Of a stretch of DNA of 10,740 nucleotides, positions 2,205-9,268 are shown piece after piece; position 1 is the stretch's first letter, and every line of letters starts with the position of its first letter. Under the pieces are notes generated by a model. That model made no database searches, had not been told where the DNA came from, and worked only from the letters and a program-made list of their open reading frames with translations. A program made the position numbers and the translations under genes. Source of the DNA: a virus; UHGV virus genome UHGV-1944544, one strand, 5' to 3'.

Positions 2205-3203
2205 ATGCAATCACTGAATACCGTTACGGATCGCTTCTCCCTGGTAGAGAAAATCCGCAAACACACACCTCAGAACAATCGCAATTACGTTATCCAGTCG
2301 GTACGAGACACATTCAACTCGCCAGAAACAAAAGAGCGTATCGCACTGGGTGAGATGTATGGTTATTACGGTCATGGTCGCCGGGCGATGCACTATAACA
2401 AAACGAAAAGCCTGGACTTGCCGGAAGTCTCTGTTGTGATGGTAGATGGGAAGCCTGTTGTATTGGAGAACGTGCCGTCAAACAGGACTATCGACATTTC
2501 AATTGACGACAACGGCATTGTTACCCATACACAGGAAATACTGGATACGGACACCGGACGTATTGTTCAGGGTATGATTAATTCTGGCGCAGGTGGTTGG
2601 TCATGGGCTACATCTGGTCCAGATTACTCTGTATCCCTGGTAAAGTCTTTTCACGGTTTTGATTACGTAACAGTGCCTAACTATATCAGCCTCGACAAGA
2701 AAAGCCTGATGCTTGAATCAGCAGAAGAACGCGACGCGGCGATTCATGCGGCACTTATCGAACAAGGTTTTACCGATAATGCTGCTACGGATCTGGTTCA
2801 CCACTTTTCAGCAATGAAGAGTCAGCAAGCCATATTCGAATCAGCACAACGTGAAGTTCTGGAGTCGGAACTGATACATCTTGAAGTGGAAAATATGCAG
2901 CTTCGCGACAAACTACGCGACCAGGCCGCGATGATGGAAAGCCAGGGGGAGAACGCAAAGAAATCCCGCCGTATTTTGCGTGATGCTATCCAGGAAATGC
3001 CTGTTTTTATCAGCGCAGAACAGCGCCGGGCGCTCTGCCGTATGCAGTCAGAGGATGATGCACGCATTGTCGCAGCGATGCTTGAATCCCTGGGGGCTAA
3101 TGCCACTTATGGTCTGCCAATATCAGCCAATAAACAACAAGAAATACCGGTGAAAGAGAACAAGACGGTGACTCCGCTGATCTTTGTGTCTAAGAGGATG
3201 TGA
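2205..3203 (+). CDS. hypothetical protein (332 aa) with a predicted alpha-helical/coiled-coil C-terminal half
   Basis: ATG 2205 preceded by a strong GGAGGG Shine-Dalgarno (2194-2199). The C-terminal region (ESELIHLEVENMQLRDKLRDQAAMMESQ...) is heptad-like and charged. No family recognised. Confidence 0.75.
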   Translation: MQSLNTVTDRFSLVEKIRKHTPQNNRNYVIQSVRDTFNSPETKERIALGEMYGYYGHGRRAMHYNKTKSLDLPEVSVVMVDGKPVVLENVPSNRTIDISIDDNGIVTHTQEILDTDTGRIVQGMINSGAGGWSWATSGPDYSVSLVKSFHGFDYVTVPNYISLDKKSLMLESAEERDAAIHAALIEQGFTDNAATDLVHHFSAMKSQQAIFESAQREVLESELIHLEVENMQLRDKLRDQAAMMESQGENAKKSRRILRDAIQEMPVFISAEQRRALCRMQSEDDARIVAAMLESLGANATYGLPISANKQQEIPVKENKTVTPLIFVSKRM

Positions 3204-3316
3204 GCTAAAAGCTAGCTTAATTTTCTAACACAGTGTGTTTTTATACACTGTTGATCCGACGGCGCGTGATCGAGTAGGATCGCGGTCACTGCTCCGGTAG
3301 CGACTGCCAAAAAAGC

Positions 3317-3340
3317 AAAAGCCGCTGAGAAGCGGCTTTT
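3317..3340 (+). terminator. Rho-independent terminator downstream of the 506-3203 operon
   Basis: Perfect inverted repeat AAAAGCCGCT / AGCGGCTTTT around a GAGA tetraloop, with the GC core followed by TTTT. The flanking A-tract and T-tract make it potentially bidirectional. Confidence 0.55.
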
Positions 3341-3401
3341 GGGTGTATAAATCTCCGGACATAGATTTATACGGTAGATAGATTTTTCACGGTACTATCT
3401 G

Positions 3402-4361
3402 GTGAGTATTTTAAATTCAGTTTCAGTAACTTTCAACACTTCTGAGTATAAAAACAACACTGAATACCACAAAAAAATCAAAGGTCATCAGTTGAGTTTT
3501 TTTGCTCGTCATAGCGGTTTTCTTTCCCCTTCACATAGCGCCATTATTGCCGAGTTCGCCAACCTGGCAGGAGCTACCGATGAATACATGATCCGTCGCT
3601 CATATGCTGATATGTCCGAGATTACAGGACGCAGTATTTCTACTGTGCGCCGGGCATTTACCGAAGCGACGAAGTGCGGAATGCTTGTTAAGCAGCATCA
3701 GGTAGCGAATAACAATGCTCAGGTGTGTAACGTGTACCGGTTTACAACACAATTTCTCCACTTCATTCATGTAGCAATGGAGATAGGGAGTAAGCAGGGC
3801 ATCAAATTTGCCAACGCCACAAAACTGGTTAAGCAGTTGATTTCAAAGGTTCGTTATTTTTTTGAAACTGGGAACCCCCTGTTCAAATTGAACAAGTCCC
3901 CCCATGTTCAAAATGAACAGCCAATAGAAAATAAGAGTCACTCTATAGCCAAAAGAAGAGAAAGATCATGCGCGGTTCAGCCAAAGGCTTCACCAGCAGA
4001 TAGTTCTCAAGCGGATAATGGCTTGCTGGATAAAAAAACAGTAATCAGGGAAGAACATACCAACCACTGCCTGGCGGCAGCAAAAGCGAGAGCTGCAAAG
4101 CGTCGTTCAGACGAGGGGTACGCAAAACGGCAGGCTCTGTATCGTACCGCTGAAAAACTGGCAAAAAAATTTGCATGGTTACGTAGTGCTACCACAGTGA
4201 ATAAGCCCAAACGATCCAGCGCCCTGGATTTCTCTATGGATTATTCTGCTTCCCAGGGATGTGCAACCATCAATGAAGCATTTGACCTGATGAAACAGCG
4301 TGGCTATCGGTCTGAATTTGACCGGGAAGACTGGTCAATTCCGGAGGGCTTTCGGGGATGA
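3402..4361 (+). CDS. helix-turn-helix DNA-binding protein, possibly a replication initiator or regulator; N-terminus uncertain
   Basis: ORF of 319 aa from GTG 3402 with no Shine-Dalgarno. The first in-frame ATG is at 3588, where the nearest AGGAG is 15 nt upstream. HTH-like segment MSEITGRSISTVRRAFTEATKCGMLV, then a basic Lys/Arg-rich C-terminal half. The AT-rich 5' part contains direct repeats. Confidence 0.55.
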   Translation: MSILNSVSVTFNTSEYKNNTEYHKKIKGHQLSFFARHSGFLSPSHSAIIAEFANLAGATDEYMIRRSYADMSEITGRSISTVRRAFTEATKCGMLVKQHQVANNNAQVCNVYRFTTQFLHFIHVAMEIGSKQGIKFANATKLVKQLISKVRYFFETGNPLFKLNKSPHVQNEQPIENKSHSIAKRRERSCAVQPKASPADSSQADNGLLDKKTVIREEHTNHCLAAAKARAAKRRSDEGYAKRQALYRTAEKLAKKFAWLRSATTVNKPKRSSALDFSMDYSASQGCATINEAFDLMKQRGYRSEFDREDWSIPEGFRG

Positions 4362-4501: not shown

Positions 4502-4530
4502 TTGATCTTTCTAATGTTCAGGCTTATATT
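4502..4530 (+). promoter_or_regulatory. Candidate sigma70 promoter (-35 TTGATC, 17-bp spacer, -10 TATATT)
   Basis: Hexamers read at 4502-4507 and 4525-4530. It lies about 250 bp upstream of the 4778 ORF and rha, and precedes the alternative-hairpin region at 4581-4620. Confidence 0.3.
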
Positions 4531-4777
4531 CATGCCGTCGTAGCAAATTCTGCGACCGGGTTTAGCAGCCTGAATGTTAGTGCGGACAACCGCAGATATC
4601 CGATATTGCGGTATTTTTGTGTCCGTAAAACCGCGTTACGCCCAAATTATGGTGGGGCGTGATGGGGAGGCTTCGGCCTGCTGGTTTCACTAACGCCAGT
4701 CTGCTAACCCCGTCACGTCCTGCCACCTGTTTAGCAGCGGGTAGCAGGTTGTTAAACCTGTTAGTGAGGCCGTAACT

Positions 4778-5002
4778 ATGGTTAATGCCAATCCTTGCTC
4801 ACGTCCAGAATTCATCTGGCGTTTTCACTCCCTGCAAAAACACTGCGATCACTTCGCAATTGCCGCAACTGAAAAAGAAGCCCGTTCTCTGATCCCGGAT
4901 CAGTATGGCGTTCTCACTGGTCGTTTCTCTACTTCCCCACAACCAAACACCAATCCCTGGTATCGCAATATTACCAATCCCGGCATTGTGGAGGCTCACT
5001 GA
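4778..5002 (+). CDS. hypothetical small protein (74 aa), translationally coupled to the Rha gene
   Basis: ATG 4778 with GAGG 8 nt upstream. Its TGA stop overlaps the rha ATG (TGATG at 5000-5004). No family recognised. Confidence 0.45.
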   Translation: MVNANPCSRPEFIWRFHSLQKHCDHFAIAATEKEARSLIPDQYGVLTGRFSTSPQPNTNPWYRNITNPGIVEAH

Positions 5003-5943
5003 TGGATATCTGCATTCTCGAAAAGCCATCAATGACAAGCATTGAGATCGCGGAGCTGGTGGGAAAACGTCATGACAATGTGAAACGCACTATTGAGACA
5101 TTAGCCAAAGGTGGCGTTATTGTTCGTCCTCAAATTGAGGTTTTCGAAAAAATCAATAACTTAGGACTACGACGTAGTGTTGAGGCTTACGTCTTCGAAG
5201 GCGAGCAAGGCAAGCGCGATAGCATTATCGTCGTCGCGCAGCTCTCTCCCGAATTCACCGCCCGGCTGGTGGACCGCTGGCGCGAACTGGAGAATGCCCG
5301 GGTACAGTTAAAATCAAAAGCCGAAATCCTGGCCGAAATGGCGCAAATGCATCTTGAGCATGAACGCCGGATCAACGCCGTTAATGCCCAGGTAGCCGAA
5401 GTATCCGCACAAGTGTCCAAAGTCGCTGAAACCGTCGAGCAGATCAAGAAAGGCAATATTCCGGAAGGCTACATTGGCTATCGCCAGTTGGCGGCAAAAT
5501 GCGGCCTGACTGAAGCCAAATGCCGCAACCTGGTCAACGCTTACCGGATACCCACTGATACGCATGAGTTTTTGACGCCAGAGGGGGTATTGTCGCGTCG
5601 TACTATTGTGGCCTTATCTCCCTTCATGAATGCCTTTACCCTGATGATGTCGGAGGCTGAACACCGAGGAAAACGCTGGTATCATCCCAGGATGGGGCTA
5701 TTTCAGGCCATTCACCATCCTGTGCCTGAAAGTCCAAAGGCAAACCTGTCGTTGCATACCGCCAGAGAGAAGATTAAAACAGGGTATGCAACCGTATGCC
5801 GTCGAGCATCCTGGCCTGAAAGTGTCTGGGTATGGCCCGAAAGAGGCTCACGGAAAAACTGGCGCACCATTCGCGACGGCAAGATCTGTGCGATTGATTT
5901 ACAGCCAGAAGATGTAGCAGCGACCGACTGGATTGTTAGTTAA
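5002..5943 (+). CDS. Rha-family phage regulatory protein (313 aa)
   Basis: N-terminal SIEIAELVGKRHDNVKRTIE matches the Rha-domain signature (...AE.FGKRHDNV.R.I...). GGAGG Shine-Dalgarno 8 nt upstream of ATG 5002. Confidence 0.8.
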   Translation: MDICILEKPSMTSIEIAELVGKRHDNVKRTIETLAKGGVIVRPQIEVFEKINNLGLRRSVEAYVFEGEQGKRDSIIVVAQLSPEFTARLVDRWRELENARVQLKSKAEILAEMAQMHLEHERRINAVNAQVAEVSAQVSKVAETVEQIKKGNIPEGYIGYRQLAAKCGLTEAKCRNLVNAYRIPTDTHEFLTPEGVLSRRTIVALSPFMNAFTLMMSEAEHRGKRWYHPRMGLFQAIHHPVPESPKANLSLHTAREKIKTGYATVCRRASWPESVWVWPERGSRKNWRTIRDGKICAIDLQPEDVAATDWIVS

Positions 5944-6729: not shown

Positions 6730-7350
6730 TTATTGCCCGTATTGTTTACACCATTGCTCTGCCATTTGTGGGGCTAAAGGCCCAGCCACTGCGCTGTATT
6801 CTGCTGTTTTGCTTTGCACGCATGAGGCAGATGGTTTTTTATTGCGCTGTTCCTTGAGTTGTTTTTCATAGGCAACGATGGCATCGAAACCAGCTACATC
6901 TTCCTCCCTCATGAACCCTTTCTTGATCAGAAACTGCTGACCTTCCGGCACCAATGCTAGAGCATACAACGGCTGCAACAGCTCCCCCAATCCTTCCCGG
7001 CTATAAACTTGAAACTGCATCCAGCTTTTACTTAACGCTGTCATAGTGTCTTTGGTGGAATAGCCAGCCTTGCGTATAGCCTTGTCTAATCGATCTGCTG
7101 AATACGCAAACAAACAGAAATCGCCCTTTCCTGTAAACCCCGGTTCAACCGGTTGCAACGTGATATTTTCTTTTTCGCAAAAGTCTATAAATTCATCAGG
7201 TCTATCGGTTTTATAGTCCCGCAATACCTTCAGTCCAGCCTCATACTTTGCAGGTAACGCGCCTGCATAGGCAGCATTAAGAGAAACTCCCCCCAATATA
7301 ACCGCGAGCACTGCTCCCAAAACCCTTAACTTCACAAAACCATCCTTCAT
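6730..7350 (-). CDS. secreted (periplasmic) protein with Sec signal peptide, about 207 aa
   Basis: Start placed at the internal ATG (7350-7348), which yields MKDGFVKLRVLGAVLAVILGGVSLNAAYA-G, a signal peptide. The 47 codons upstream in the track ORF are Phe-rich, AT-driven and look non-coding. Mature part has four Cys. Confidence 0.65.
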   Translation of the reverse strand: MKDGFVKLRVLGAVLAVILGGVSLNAAYAGALPAKYEAGLKVLRDYKTDRPDEFIDFCEKENITLQPVEPGFTGKGDFCLFAYSADRLDKAIRKAGYSTKDTMTALSKSWMQFQVYSREGLGELLQPLYALALVPEGQQFLIKKGFMREEDVAGFDAIVAYEKQLKEQRNKKPSASCVQSKTAEYSAVAGPLAPQMAEQWCKQYGQ

Positions 7351-7564
7351 GTAAAAAAACTGAAGTTTTATGTTACAAAAGCAAACATCTACGCCAAAAT
7401 GACCTAGGCCAAATTCAGCGCGAATAAAAAATTCAAAAAAATTGTTGACACTATTCTGGAAATCACAATCTGGACAAAATCCATTACGCAAACGGCTCCC
7501 GTTGAAGGTTCTTTTGACGACTAACTTTCAGCCGATGCGCGGTAGGGAGTCATAACGCCAAAGC

Positions 7565-7589
7565 AGGCCGCCATGTGCGGCCTTTTTTT
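7565..7589 (+). terminator. Strong intrinsic-terminator-like hairpin in the leader of the 7616 gene
   Basis: AGGCCGC / GCGGCCT 7-bp stem with loop CATGT, followed by seven T. Plus-oriented, ending 26 bp before ATG 7616, with no plus-strand gene immediately upstream. Confidence 0.6.
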
Positions 7590-7615
7590 GTGCCTGCTAT
7601 CGTGGAGTAAAAGCC

Positions 7616-8269
7616 ATGCAAAAGATCGCAATATTCAGCCTTTCTACTAACAAGCCGCTGATGGCTACAGCAGTCCTGAAAGACGGCGCGCTTGTAATTG
7701 ACAAAGTAAAGCCGCTCCCTGCATCTGCTATTGAACAAAAACGAAAAATTCCACCAGTAATTGCCGAGCTGCGTAAAAGTGAATTTAAGGTGCTGGTTGA
7801 CGAAATCACGCCAACCATTTCAGCCGGTACAGGTGCCAGCCAGGTAACATTAAAAACACGGCACGCCGACGGCAGAGCAGCGATCATTGTCGGCATGGAG
7901 AGATACCGGGAGCTGAAACTACAAAGGCTGCTATCCCTGCCTGACAAGAACAAAGGGGCATTTGAGATCCCCGACTCTATCGTCGATACCGAATACAACG
8001 GCAACGGTGAAGAGGTTTATCGAGTTAACTGGCAAGATATCCGACCAGAGCACATCCTGATGATTCTGTGCTGCTATGCAACGGTATACCACAATGTTGC
8101 CAGCGCGGATTACCTGAAACAAATGACAGGAGCGGTAGAGAAAGAAAACAAAGCAGGGATAATGGCCTCGTTCCTGTCCATTATCAGCGATCAAAAAGCT
8201 AAAGCAGGAAATACCCAACCAAAATCGCTGGCCGGGCAAGTAATTGATGAAGATACGGTGATACTTTAA
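7616..8269 (+). CDS. hypothetical protein (217 aa)
   Basis: ATG 7616 with GGAG 8 nt upstream. No signal peptide, no transmembrane segment and no recognised motif. Confidence 0.7.
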   Translation: MQKIAIFSLSTNKPLMATAVLKDGALVIDKVKPLPASAIEQKRKIPPVIAELRKSEFKVLVDEITPTISAGTGASQVTLKTRHADGRAAIIVGMERYRELKLQRLLSLPDKNKGAFEIPDSIVDTEYNGNGEEVYRVNWQDIRPEHILMILCCYATVYHNVASADYLKQMTGAVEKENKAGIMASFLSIISDQKAKAGNTQPKSLAGQVIDEDTVIL

Positions 8270-8541
8270 TCAACTCAGTAGCTTTGTTAACTCCCTTAAT
8301 ACCAGGTAGAAGAGTAACAAAAATACTAACGCCAGTATTTGCGTGGTCAACGAGGCGTTCATAAACAGAACAATTAGCTTTAACAATTCGAGAATAACGT
8401 CCATGTCATTCACACTATTTAATTTTTAATCTACAGCCAGCAAACAATGAAGCTGCCCCCCGCATAAAGATTAATGAAAGTCACTTGTTGACAGTCAATA
8501 AATTCAGTGCGGCGAAGAAACTCTGTCTATACGGATAGTGC

Positions 8542-8579
8542 TTGCATTTTGCCCTTTCCGCGTGTAGTGTGTATACACA
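8542..8579 (+). promoter_or_regulatory. Putative higBA promoter with a 12-bp palindromic operator (TGTGTATACACA)
   Basis: Perfect palindrome at 8568-8579 overlapping a candidate -10 (TATACA, 8572-8577), with -35 TTGCCC at 8549-8554 (17-bp spacer); an alternative pairing is TTGCAT 8542-8547 with TAGTGT 8565-8570. It lies 26-37 bp upstream of the higB start. Confidence 0.4.
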
Positions 8580-8604
8580 AGTCACGCACACGGATGGAAT
8601 TATT

Positions 8605-8886
8605 TTGATTAAGTCATTTCGCCATAAGGGGCTTGAACGCTTTTTCAAGACAGGTTCAACCGCAGGCATTCAGACCAAACATGCGGTTAAGCTACGCATT
8701 CAATTGACTGCTCTTAATACAGCTAAACGCCCGGACGATATGTCTGCGCCTGGATGGGAATTACACCCACTAAAGGGGGCGGACCTTAAAGGTCACTGGG
8801 CAATATCGGTAAACGGTAACTGGCGACTTACCTTCCGATTTGAAGGAGAAGACGCAATTCTAGTTGACTATCAGGATTATCATTGA
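8605..8886 (+). CDS. higB: HigB toxin (RelE/ParE superfamily, plasmid-maintenance-killer type), about 93 aa
   Basis: From TTG 8605 the product reads (M)[13 protein letters not shown]...[41 protein letters not shown], matching the HigB signature (MIKSFxHKGL ... HPLKGD..G.W.I.V..NWR.TF.F...DA.I..Y.DYH). GGATGGA Shine-Dalgarno at 8592-8598. The track ORF opens earlier, at TTG 8542. Confidence 0.85.
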
Positions 8887-8894
8887 GGAACACT

Positions 8895-9176
8895 ATGAGT
8901 CGTATGCATAATCCCGCGCATCCAGGCGCGGTTCTTCGTGAATATTTGGGAGACATGTCAGTCACAGACGCAGCTGCTGCATTAGGCATTACTCGCACGG
9001 CACTTTCCCGAATTCTGAACGAAAAAACAGGTATTTCTGCTGATATGGCACTTCGTCTGGAGTCCGCTCTTGGAACCAGTGCCGAAATGTGGACCGGTAT
9101 GCAATCCCAGTATGAGCTTTGGGTTGCTTCGCAAACCGCTCGCCCAAACATCCGTCCATTATTTTCCCACGCATAA
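8895..9176 (+). CDS. higA: HigA antitoxin (XRE-type HTH), about 93 aa
   Basis: From ATG 8895 the product reads [18 protein letters not shown]...[37 protein letters not shown], matching the HigA family (MHNP.HPG ... S...L.GK.GIS..MALRL...GTS.E.W). GAGG Shine-Dalgarno 6 nt upstream; the start is 8 bp after the higB stop. Confidence 0.85.
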
Positions 9177-9181
9177 TTTTA

Positions 9182-9213
9182 CAGCGTCACCAGGCCAGGT
9201 GACGCTGCTTTCC
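9182..9213 (+). terminator. Candidate terminator after higA
   Basis: Perfect 9-bp stem CAGCGTCAC / GTGACGCTG with an 8-nt loop, followed by CTTTCC, a weak U-tract. Confidence 0.4.
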
Positions 9214-9268
9214 CGCATTTCACACCCTGCATACAGTTCCCCACAGGTTATGACTGTGAGGAACTGTT

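Follow-up and report, generated by a model that had tools for sequence, protein, structure and literature searches.

A conserved leader RNA with a predicted three-helix domain and an intrinsic terminator precedes the maturation-control gene mat in D6- and P1-like phage-plasmids

The window analysed here is the whole 10,740-nucleotide (nt) stretch of the virus genome UHGV-1944544, which derives from a D6-like (P1-related) phage-plasmid; it is 99% identical to Escherichia coli plasmids of roughly 90 kb, and phage D6, itself a P1-related phage-plasmid, is ~80% identical to it over this region. At 7616–8269 on the plus strand the window encodes a 217-residue homologue of the phage P1 maturation-control protein Mat, and the transcript of this gene is predicted to open with a leader RNA of ~103 nt (7487–7589, plus strand, running from the predicted transcription start through the last U of the U-tract). 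Comparison of homologous loci indicates that the mat leader is a conserved structured RNA, in which a closed domain of three helices is followed by a G+C-rich terminator hairpin placed shortly before the Shine-Dalgarno sequence of mat. With slightly better than even confidence, we read this leader as a factor-dependent or dose-limiting attenuator of mat that also frees a small late RNA.

The terminator lies at 7565–7589 on the plus strand and comprises the stem AGGCCGC/GCGGCCT (7565–7571 paired with 7577–7583), the loop CATGT (7572–7576) and a run of seven T at 7583–7589, the first of which doubles as the last base of the stem and the last of which is followed by G 7590. A first-pass annotation of this DNA had described a canonical intrinsic terminator, with a 7-bp GC stem and seven T, ending 26 nt before ATG 7616; the hairpin, the T-run and the distance are borne out by the sequence, by a terminator scan in which the hairpin is one of the top three sites of the window, and by shuffling, whereas the stem needs a small correction in that its seven pairs are six G-C and one A-T. 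The energy of the hairpin is −13.1 kcal/mol. When chance occurrence was counted on both strands with criteria of at least seven perfect pairs, at least six G-C pairs and at least six T among the next eight bases, one site in the window qualified, against a mean of 0.007 per dinucleotide-shuffled window, and any qualifying hairpin was held by 2 of 300 shuffles. The hairpin is real and non-random, and a G+C-rich stem-loop followed by U7 on the plus strand is the sequence signature of an intrinsic terminator. As a TAA codon at 7553–7555 stands in frame with mat, the hairpin is not coding in the window, and an in-frame N-terminal extension of Mat was rejected here on account of the same codon. No plus-strand gene lies ahead of the hairpin, as the first reading had stated, the neighbouring gene at 6730–7350 being divergent (minus strand).

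That reading had also taken the 217-residue product for an orphan of no recognisable family, a view overturned by its homology. The protein matches PHROG 1837 with an E-value of 1.4e-89 and shares 85% of its residues with D6 Mat; the alignment with P1/P7 Mat spans 94% of the length at ~33% identity (E about 1e-31). By these similarities the gene is mat and not an orphan. Pfam and NCBIfam gave no match to the protein, and sequence searches of Mat against the PDB and against PacB returned nothing. The predicted structure of Mat resembles the RNase H-like nuclease domains of large terminases (TerL) and is unlike the fold of a ToxN-type endoribonuclease. The Shine-Dalgarno sequence of mat, GGAG at 7604–7607 (plus strand), lies 8 nt before the ATG, and a purine-rich sequence resembling it occurs at the same place in homologues. 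From classical P1 genetics, mat is listed as an essential phage gene (PMC10695390).

Upstream of the leader, at 7460–7480 on the plus strand, lies a predicted late promoter of the D6 (Lpa) type, composed of the box AAATCACAATCT (7460–7471) and the −10 element CAAAAT (7475–7480), from which transcription is predicted to start at about 7486–7488. The motif AWWTCACAMNCT-N3-YANNNT has three copies in the window (at 453, 7460 and 9217; 0.00 expected), which precede the portal gene (453–473), mat (7460–7480) and the baseplate gene 26 (9217–9237), respectively. In D6 this composite pattern is matched five times, and the late motif is found upstream of 9–11 late operons (at least nine sites; L071/L072), ahead of a lysozyme-like gene, prt, ddrB, lydA, R, pmgB/sit, 23, 26 and mat. 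The copies point toward the late genes and lie 23–43 nt upstream of their start codons, giving a D6-type consensus of AAATCACA(M)(N)CT-N3-TAnnnT, the box of which differs from the P1 Lpa box AAGTGACTT. Across lineages the −10 column stays TAnnnT-like (CAAAAT in the window, CATAAT in D6, and TAAAGT, TACAGT or TAGAAT in others), and the layout that recurs at late operons is a −10 with a conserved box about 13–15 nt upstream and without a −35. D6 encodes Lpa (PF25716, 5e-57), the gene for which lies outside the 10.7-kb window, and the P1 record annotates LPmat, with a −22 box and a −10, at the equivalent place. By these sequence features the mat promoter is a late, activator-type promoter, the D6 version of the P1-type (Lpa) promoter. 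The leaders of the other late operons measure ~23–43 nt, and mat alone has one of ~135 nt. In the 26 nt between the T-run and the mat ATG, neither the promoter scan nor the motif search found a promoter-like site. In a side observation, the RefSeq/PGAP start of the divergent gene is TTG 7491 (6730–7491, minus strand), which overlaps the mat promoter, and the PHROG 12786 profile covers the full length of that gene from ATG 7350 (206 residues).

Further upstream, an A/T-rich tract that ends in TTGACA (7423–7450, plus strand; TTGACA at 7445–7450) is conserved in all mat modules including that of P1, and is missing from the other D6 late promoters except that of gene 23. The first-pass annotation had remarked that this TTGACA lacks a good −10 element, which is correct, no usable −10 being present at 16–18 nt; its suggestion that a short RNA might start from the element did not hold, as the predicted promoter is the late one at 7460–7480 that is common to other late operons. 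With 24 nt between it and the conserved −10 in the window, TTGACA cannot be the −35 of the mat promoter, and a role as a sigma-70 −35 was rejected more generally on the spacing across lineages (18–27 nt) and the lack of an alternative −10. For the sequence TTGACACTATT, roles as an operator of P1 C1 or as a repressor operator in repeated copies were rejected, since no further copies occur in D6 or in the window.

The predicted fold of the leader is closed by a helix whose 5′ strand (7486–7500) pairs with 7545–7558, both on the plus strand as are the hairpins between them. This closing helix is made up of P0 (7486–7491 with 7553–7558) and helix P1 (GGCUCCC at 7494–7500 with GGGAGUC at 7545–7551), and it encloses hairpin P2 at 7503–7530 (stem 7503–7510/7523–7530, with the 12-nt loop CUUUUGACGACU at 7511–7522) and the small hairpin P3 at 7531–7543 (GCCG/CGGU, with GCGCGG at 7537–7542), which is the least certain of the helices. 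A short A-rich linker separates P3 and the closing domain from the terminator. The window leader folds with −37.6 kcal/mol (z = −2.1), and the single-sequence folds of most lineages give one and the same architecture of P0/P1, P2, P3 or junction, linker and terminator. The P2 loop reads as a near-invariant CUUUUGACGA, with a nearly invariant core UUUUGRCRA and a length of 12–13 nt across lineages, and GCGCGG of P3 has a single exception, GCGCGA in L069, the most divergent of the sequences. Helix P1 is legible by eye even in unaligned sequences, as GGCUCCC/GGGAGUC in the window, GGUUCCC/GGGAGCC in L005, GUGUUCCC/GGGAACAU in L040, GCGAACC/GGUUCGU in L066 and GGUUCUGG/CCAGA(U)ACC in L069. As G.U pairs are frequent in the helices, the structure is specific to the RNA of the plus strand.

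Homologous loci were gathered from annotated phages and plasmids, IMG/VR, GTDB genomes and metagenomes, with Mat 39–100% identical to that of the window. In every locus of the first collection (about 60) a GC hairpin, usually GGCCGC-loop-GCGGCC, stands with a T-run 20–30 nt before the mat start. A first covariance model, built on the D6 group with an imposed structure, gave exactly one match in each D6-like, Citrobacter, Enterobacter and Pantoea-type locus, directly upstream of mat (E 1e-5 to 1e-32), and a second model built from the matches of the first placed the leader upstream of mat in 58 of the 58 loci searched, metagenomic ones included. The window leader is matched at 7481–7594 with 134 bits by the first model and 112 bits by the second. 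The D6 genome and the window hold one copy each, their other weak covariance-model matches being merely terminators; in a loose pattern scan of IMG/VR, most listed pattern matches were due to chance, and all 28 leaders confirmed by the model lay on contigs that carry mat. Among 5,426 complete E. coli genomes, 100 carry the D6-type leader on plasmids; in PLSDB, this type is present in 121 plasmids and the P1-type leader in 697. Rfam 15 gave no match at E ≤1 for 7440–7615 of the window, and for six related loci (P1, JK004, Pantoea-type and others) it gave only sub-threshold chance matches; the leader is an RNA family new to the databases searched, of an already known kind, the terminator-containing leader.

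The helices are supported by paired substitutions. Among 28 distinct sequences, 88% of the cells are paired and both sides have changed in 21 of 32 pairs; the outcome on 17 sequences was similar. Because these alignments were fitted to the model, figures of this kind come out inflated. By helix, double changes affect 6 of 6 pairs in P0, 5 of 7 in P1, 5 of 8 in P2, 4 of 4 in P3 and 1 of 7 in the terminator, such that P0/P1, P2 and P3 together have them in 20 of 25 pairs. The share of paired cells is 80% in P3 and 99.5% in the terminator helix. The covariation score of 0.396 compares with 0.141 for column shuffles, none of 500 of which reached 0.396, and with at most 0.088 when the partners were slid. 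RNAalifold run on the fitted alignment without an imposed structure still keeps helix P1 and the terminator. All comparisons gave the leader a higher nucleotide identity than the coding sequence of mat (94 vs 78%, 80 vs 72% and 65–69 vs 58–64%), and the DNA further upstream is near random and unalignable. Within the terminator, the stem core GCCGC/GCGGC is kept nearly everywhere, with compensated variants in L005/L034 (AAGCCGC/GCGGCUU) and in P1 (GCCGCC/GGUGGC, with a G.U pair); the loop is free in sequence and 3–6 nt long, and the Pantoea-type lineage has interruptions in its U-tract. The interrupted U-tracts UUUCGCCUUUU and UUUUUGCUUUC, found in Pantoea/Citrobacter-type loci (L039–L042, L045–L070) at about 20–60 nt ahead of mat, go with GTG or TTG starts of mat, and in the lineages with long U-runs mat starts with ATG. 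This pairing of the weakest U-tracts with non-ATG starts hints at selection for low Mat output.

In the P1 group, the loci of P1, P7 and SJ46 and of the more distant JK004 show the order TTGAC, box and −10, closing helix, two hairpins, GC hairpin with U-run, Shine-Dalgarno sequence and mat. In P1 (NC_005856, 2666–2830) the closing helix CCCGGUAC/GUACCGGG surrounds the two hairpins, and the terminator GCCGCC-GCU-GGUGGC is followed by UUUUCUUUUUU just before the internal ATG 2827. The closing helix of the group is 9 bp long and carries a compensatory A-U to G-C change, and the hairpin loops of P1 and JK004 read CUUUUCAAA. The P1-type leaders of the 697 plasmids are ≥90% identical, so that no covariation is available from them. 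The LPmat/Pmat region of P1 thus shares with the window its order of parts, from TTGACA through the conserved Mat start, but the sequence in common is limited to short motifs (TTGAC, the CUUUU..A loop and the GCCGC stem); homology of the P1 and D6 groups, with the same architecture, is probable. The two also differ in annotation, as the P1 record assigns the leader region to Mat codons 1–37. In that record (L006) mat starts 37 codons upstream of ATG 2827, the start used by all homologues; the short start already stands in the JK004 and SJ46 records. The 37 additional N-terminal residues have no counterpart in homologues outside P1, and their codons (2716–2829) cover the helices of the leader together with its terminator, reading ...RRWWLFFFVGGA, like a translated terminator. 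By this comparison the N-terminus of P1 Mat is probably misannotated, with ATG 2827 as the true start.

These features suggest the following course of events. Late in lytic growth the Lpa-type promoter at 7460–7480 would fire and polymerase would transcribe ~100 nt, the nascent RNA folding into a closed three-helix domain formed by P0/P1, P2 with its conserved U-rich loop and P3 with GCGCGG. Most transcripts would then end at the GC hairpin and U7 and be released as a small late RNA, and only the polymerases that read through would reach the Shine-Dalgarno sequence and the ATG and make Mat. Because the late promoter lies upstream and none was found after the U-tract, mat should be expressible only by read-through, and because the terminator follows the sole promoter before mat, the default product should be the terminated RNA of ~100 nt. 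In this manner the leader would act as a transcription attenuator that holds Mat output far below the potential of the strong late promoter, and the conserved domain would offer a handle by which a trans-acting factor, be it Mat itself in a feedback or a transcription factor of phage or host, could adjust termination or read-through. The conserved loops most likely contact such a factor, since the leader has no conserved antiterminator pairing, leader peptide, boxA or tandem repeats. The sequences themselves show the anatomy, the type of promoter, the conservation and covariation, the link to mat alone and the lack of a switch helix; that transcription terminates here, how efficiently it does so, and that a factor exists, and which one, we infer from them. 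The attenuation, conditional read-through or short RNA proposed by the first-pass annotation is in keeping with the absence of a promoter at 7589–7616, with the conservation of the hairpin and with its place as the 3′ module of a covarying RNA; the TTGACA start is the part that falls away.

Other forms of leader control were considered for the window and rejected. For a riboswitch or T-box-type switch, the conserved, covarying domain upstream of the terminator that could serve as a sensor is present, but a competing antiterminator pairing is not, nor is a conserved anti-Shine-Dalgarno pairing. When transcripts were folded truncated before the 3′ arm of the terminator, the 5′ arm paired with upstream sequence in some lineages, but never in the window, D6, L005, P1 or JK004, which makes such pairings a feature of particular lineages. 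A leader peptide was set aside because the only small open reading frame (ORF; ATG 7535, 6 codons) is missing from D6 and is not conserved.

Several points weigh against the attenuator. In 11 of 12 lineages the duplexes that the 5′ region can form with the 5′ arm of the terminator are energetically no better than those of shuffles, and in the window only 3 of the 6 pairs of P0 form, so that this helix is weak here. With plain MAFFT alignment and RNAalifold on unfitted sequences, the terminator alone was recovered; the other helices needed structure-guided alignment, to which the inflation of the covariation figures mentioned above also belongs. The second covariance model did not detect the P1-group leader (E about 1), and the homology with P1 rests on architecture. 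The start site, termination and its efficiency are predictions from sequence. The regulated part of the model draws solely on the otherwise unexplained conservation of the loops and junction; a plain dose-limiting terminator would not need so elaborate a domain, which could equally mean an RNA with a function of its own.

An RNA of that sort, although on balance unlikely, is the alternative we take most seriously: the ~100-nt RNA would be the main product, either a stand-alone late small RNA (sRNA) acting in trans on targets in host or phage or a cofactor, inhibitor or scaffold partner of Mat, and the terminator would provide it in excess. The near-invariance of loops and junctions in a leader more conserved than the protein gene would be expected of such an RNA, which runs from the foot of the closing helix to the hairpin and U7 in the shape of a stable sRNA; no switch helix joins the domain to the terminator, the RNA and mat are never found apart, and the predicted fold of Mat is that of a nuclease. 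For an Hfq-type sRNA one would look for a tail of at least six U and for a seed that pairs with targets; the tail here is U7, and a search of the rest of the window for a complement to the invariant loop came up empty. The terminator lies 20–30 nt from the Shine-Dalgarno sequence in all lineages, as is typical of a leader, and the poor U-tracts of some lineages (UUUCGCCUUUU) fit badly with an RNA that needs an efficient 3′ end. Tandem repeats like those of type III antitoxins are lacking and Mat does not have the fold of a ToxN-type endoribonuclease, which speaks against a partnership of that type; a type III toxin-antitoxin system as such was rejected on the absence of tandem repeats in the leader and on the TerL-nuclease-like model of Mat. 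A bolder form, which we consider improbable, makes the leader the RNA half of an RNA-protein machine, in which Mat would bind its own excess leader RNA and be guided, scaffolded or restrained by it in DNA or particle maturation.

Similarly improbable in our estimation is that the domain is a processive antitermination site like nut or put, which, by modifying RNA polymerase either unaided or jointly with Nus factors or a phage protein, would let transcripts of this promoter pass this and later terminators into the baseplate and tail genes, while those that arrive from elsewhere are stopped. The order of promoter, RNA hairpins, terminator and genes is that of lambda nut and HK022 put, genes 26 and 25 follow mat on the same strand in D6-like genomes, and the U-rich P2 loop resembles boxA loosely (gapped) by eye. 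According to a review of P1, antitermination is strongly indicated and a factor for it has yet to be identified (PMC10695390), a published suspicion with which such a site would agree. A search of 7481–7615 for boxA GCUCUUUAACAA found no match within 3 mismatches, however; gene 26 has a late promoter of its own, P1 has nothing to antiterminate downstream of mat, which is followed by the convergent gene res, and the element is present in a single copy per genome, which does not stand at the head of the long late operons. The hairpin might also be a mere insulator against stray transcription from upstream, for instance in the lysogen, unlinked to the conserved sequence ahead of it. The upstream TTGAC and A-tract might drive basal transcription, and Mat, to judge from its nuclease-like fold, may harm a lysogen; yet the late promoter lies upstream too, so that late transcripts must also cross the hairpin, and the terminator is never seen without the structured domain, from which it is separated by a short and conserved interval. 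This reading is very improbable. Least credible of all is a palindromic DNA operator, at which a dimeric protein would bind the inverted repeat and keep transcription out of mat. It would account for the sequence conservation of the half-sites GGCCGC/GCGGCC in most lineages, where compensatory drift might have been expected, but the spacer varies from 3 to 6 nt with a free loop sequence, the T-run always follows the repeat, and pairing is maintained through G.U, a pair without meaning in duplex DNA, both in the P1 stem GCCGCC/GGUGGC and where A-U has become G.U at the base of the stem.

As an attenuator, the mat leader finds its closest parallel, by analogy, in the control of the S10 leader by L4, or in phage antitermination factors that act between a promoter and the first terminator. 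In E. coli the S10 leader is subject to NusA-dependent attenuation mediated by L4, a protein that sets termination by acting on hairpins of the leader. Like the mat leader, it is a structured RNA (100–170 nt) with a terminator tens of nt before the first start codon and without an exclusive antiterminator helix; unlike it, it involves a ribosomal protein and not a nuclease-like phage protein, the two have no homology in sequence or structure, and binding of a protein to the mat leader is hypothetical. At lambda PR′-tR′, a terminated ‘6S’ transcript of 194 nt is made and Q brings about antitermination. This locus shares with mat a short terminated RNA by default and read-through for the genes beyond, and nut and HK022 put share an RNA element between promoter and terminator; in contrast to these, the mat promoter is itself late and predicted to be activator-dependent, there is no boxA and no known factor like Q or N, and in P1 a single gene lies downstream. 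Type III toxin-antitoxin systems consist of toxI repeats, a terminator and toxN, the terminator setting the RNA in excess. The order of promoter, structured RNA, intrinsic terminator and protein gene, giving RNA over protein, is alike, but the mat leader lacks tandem repeats, Mat is TerL-nuclease-like, and mat is an essential phage gene (PMC10695390) and not a toxin. Regulatory RNAs known from the same phage family are C4, c4-a1b1 and isrK (RF01695, RF03163 and RF01394), which lie at 4524–4730 in the window; they differ from the mat leader in locus, structure and function, and the leader matches none of them.

The window also carries other features. The C4 antisense RNA of the immI type lies at 4645–4730 (RF01695, 70 bits), its a1/b1 target at 4524–4576 (RF03163) and an isrK-like RNA, a sub-threshold match, at 4537–4618; this immI-type cluster is followed by icd (4778–5002) and a Rha-type antirepressor (5002–5943). 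Other genes encode the portal, a protease and the baseplate/tail proteins 26 and 25. The divergent gene at 6730–7350, the nearest upstream neighbour of mat, encodes a signal-peptide-like N-terminus, and the D6 record has a simB-like gene there. Between mat and gene 26 lies a cassette of a higB-like toxin (PF05015) and a helix-turn-helix antitoxin at ~8490–9240 (ORFs 8542–8886 and 8883–9176), which is missing from the otherwise 99% identical plasmid NZ_JBWKMP010000003 (L001). In D6-like genomes the gap between mat and genes 26 and 25 can be short, just 59 nt in the Enterobacter plasmid L005. A strong terminator-like hairpin on the minus strand at 3316–3341, CAAAAGCCGC-TTCT-GCGGCTTTTG with a T-run, sits in the gap between ORFs 2205–3203 and 3402–4361, and is the best covariance-model match apart from the leader, through the terminator half of the model.

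P1 is a paradigm phage, and phage-plasmids of the P1/D6 type are common in Enterobacteriaceae. Its mat is essential and yet mechanistically unexplained as a ‘maturation control’ gene, and a covariation-supported RNA ahead of mat gives a handle on its control; the leader likewise offers a direct route to testing the antitermination long suspected in P1. A corrected Mat start codon and a consensus for D6-type late promoters are by-products of the analysis. If it were true that the RNA binds Mat, with its predicted terminase-nuclease fold, the importance of the leader would be considerably higher, and if the two formed an RNA-protein machine, tailed-phage maturation would have an RNA cofactor in a system other than phi29, or Mat would be a nuclease restrained by RNA.

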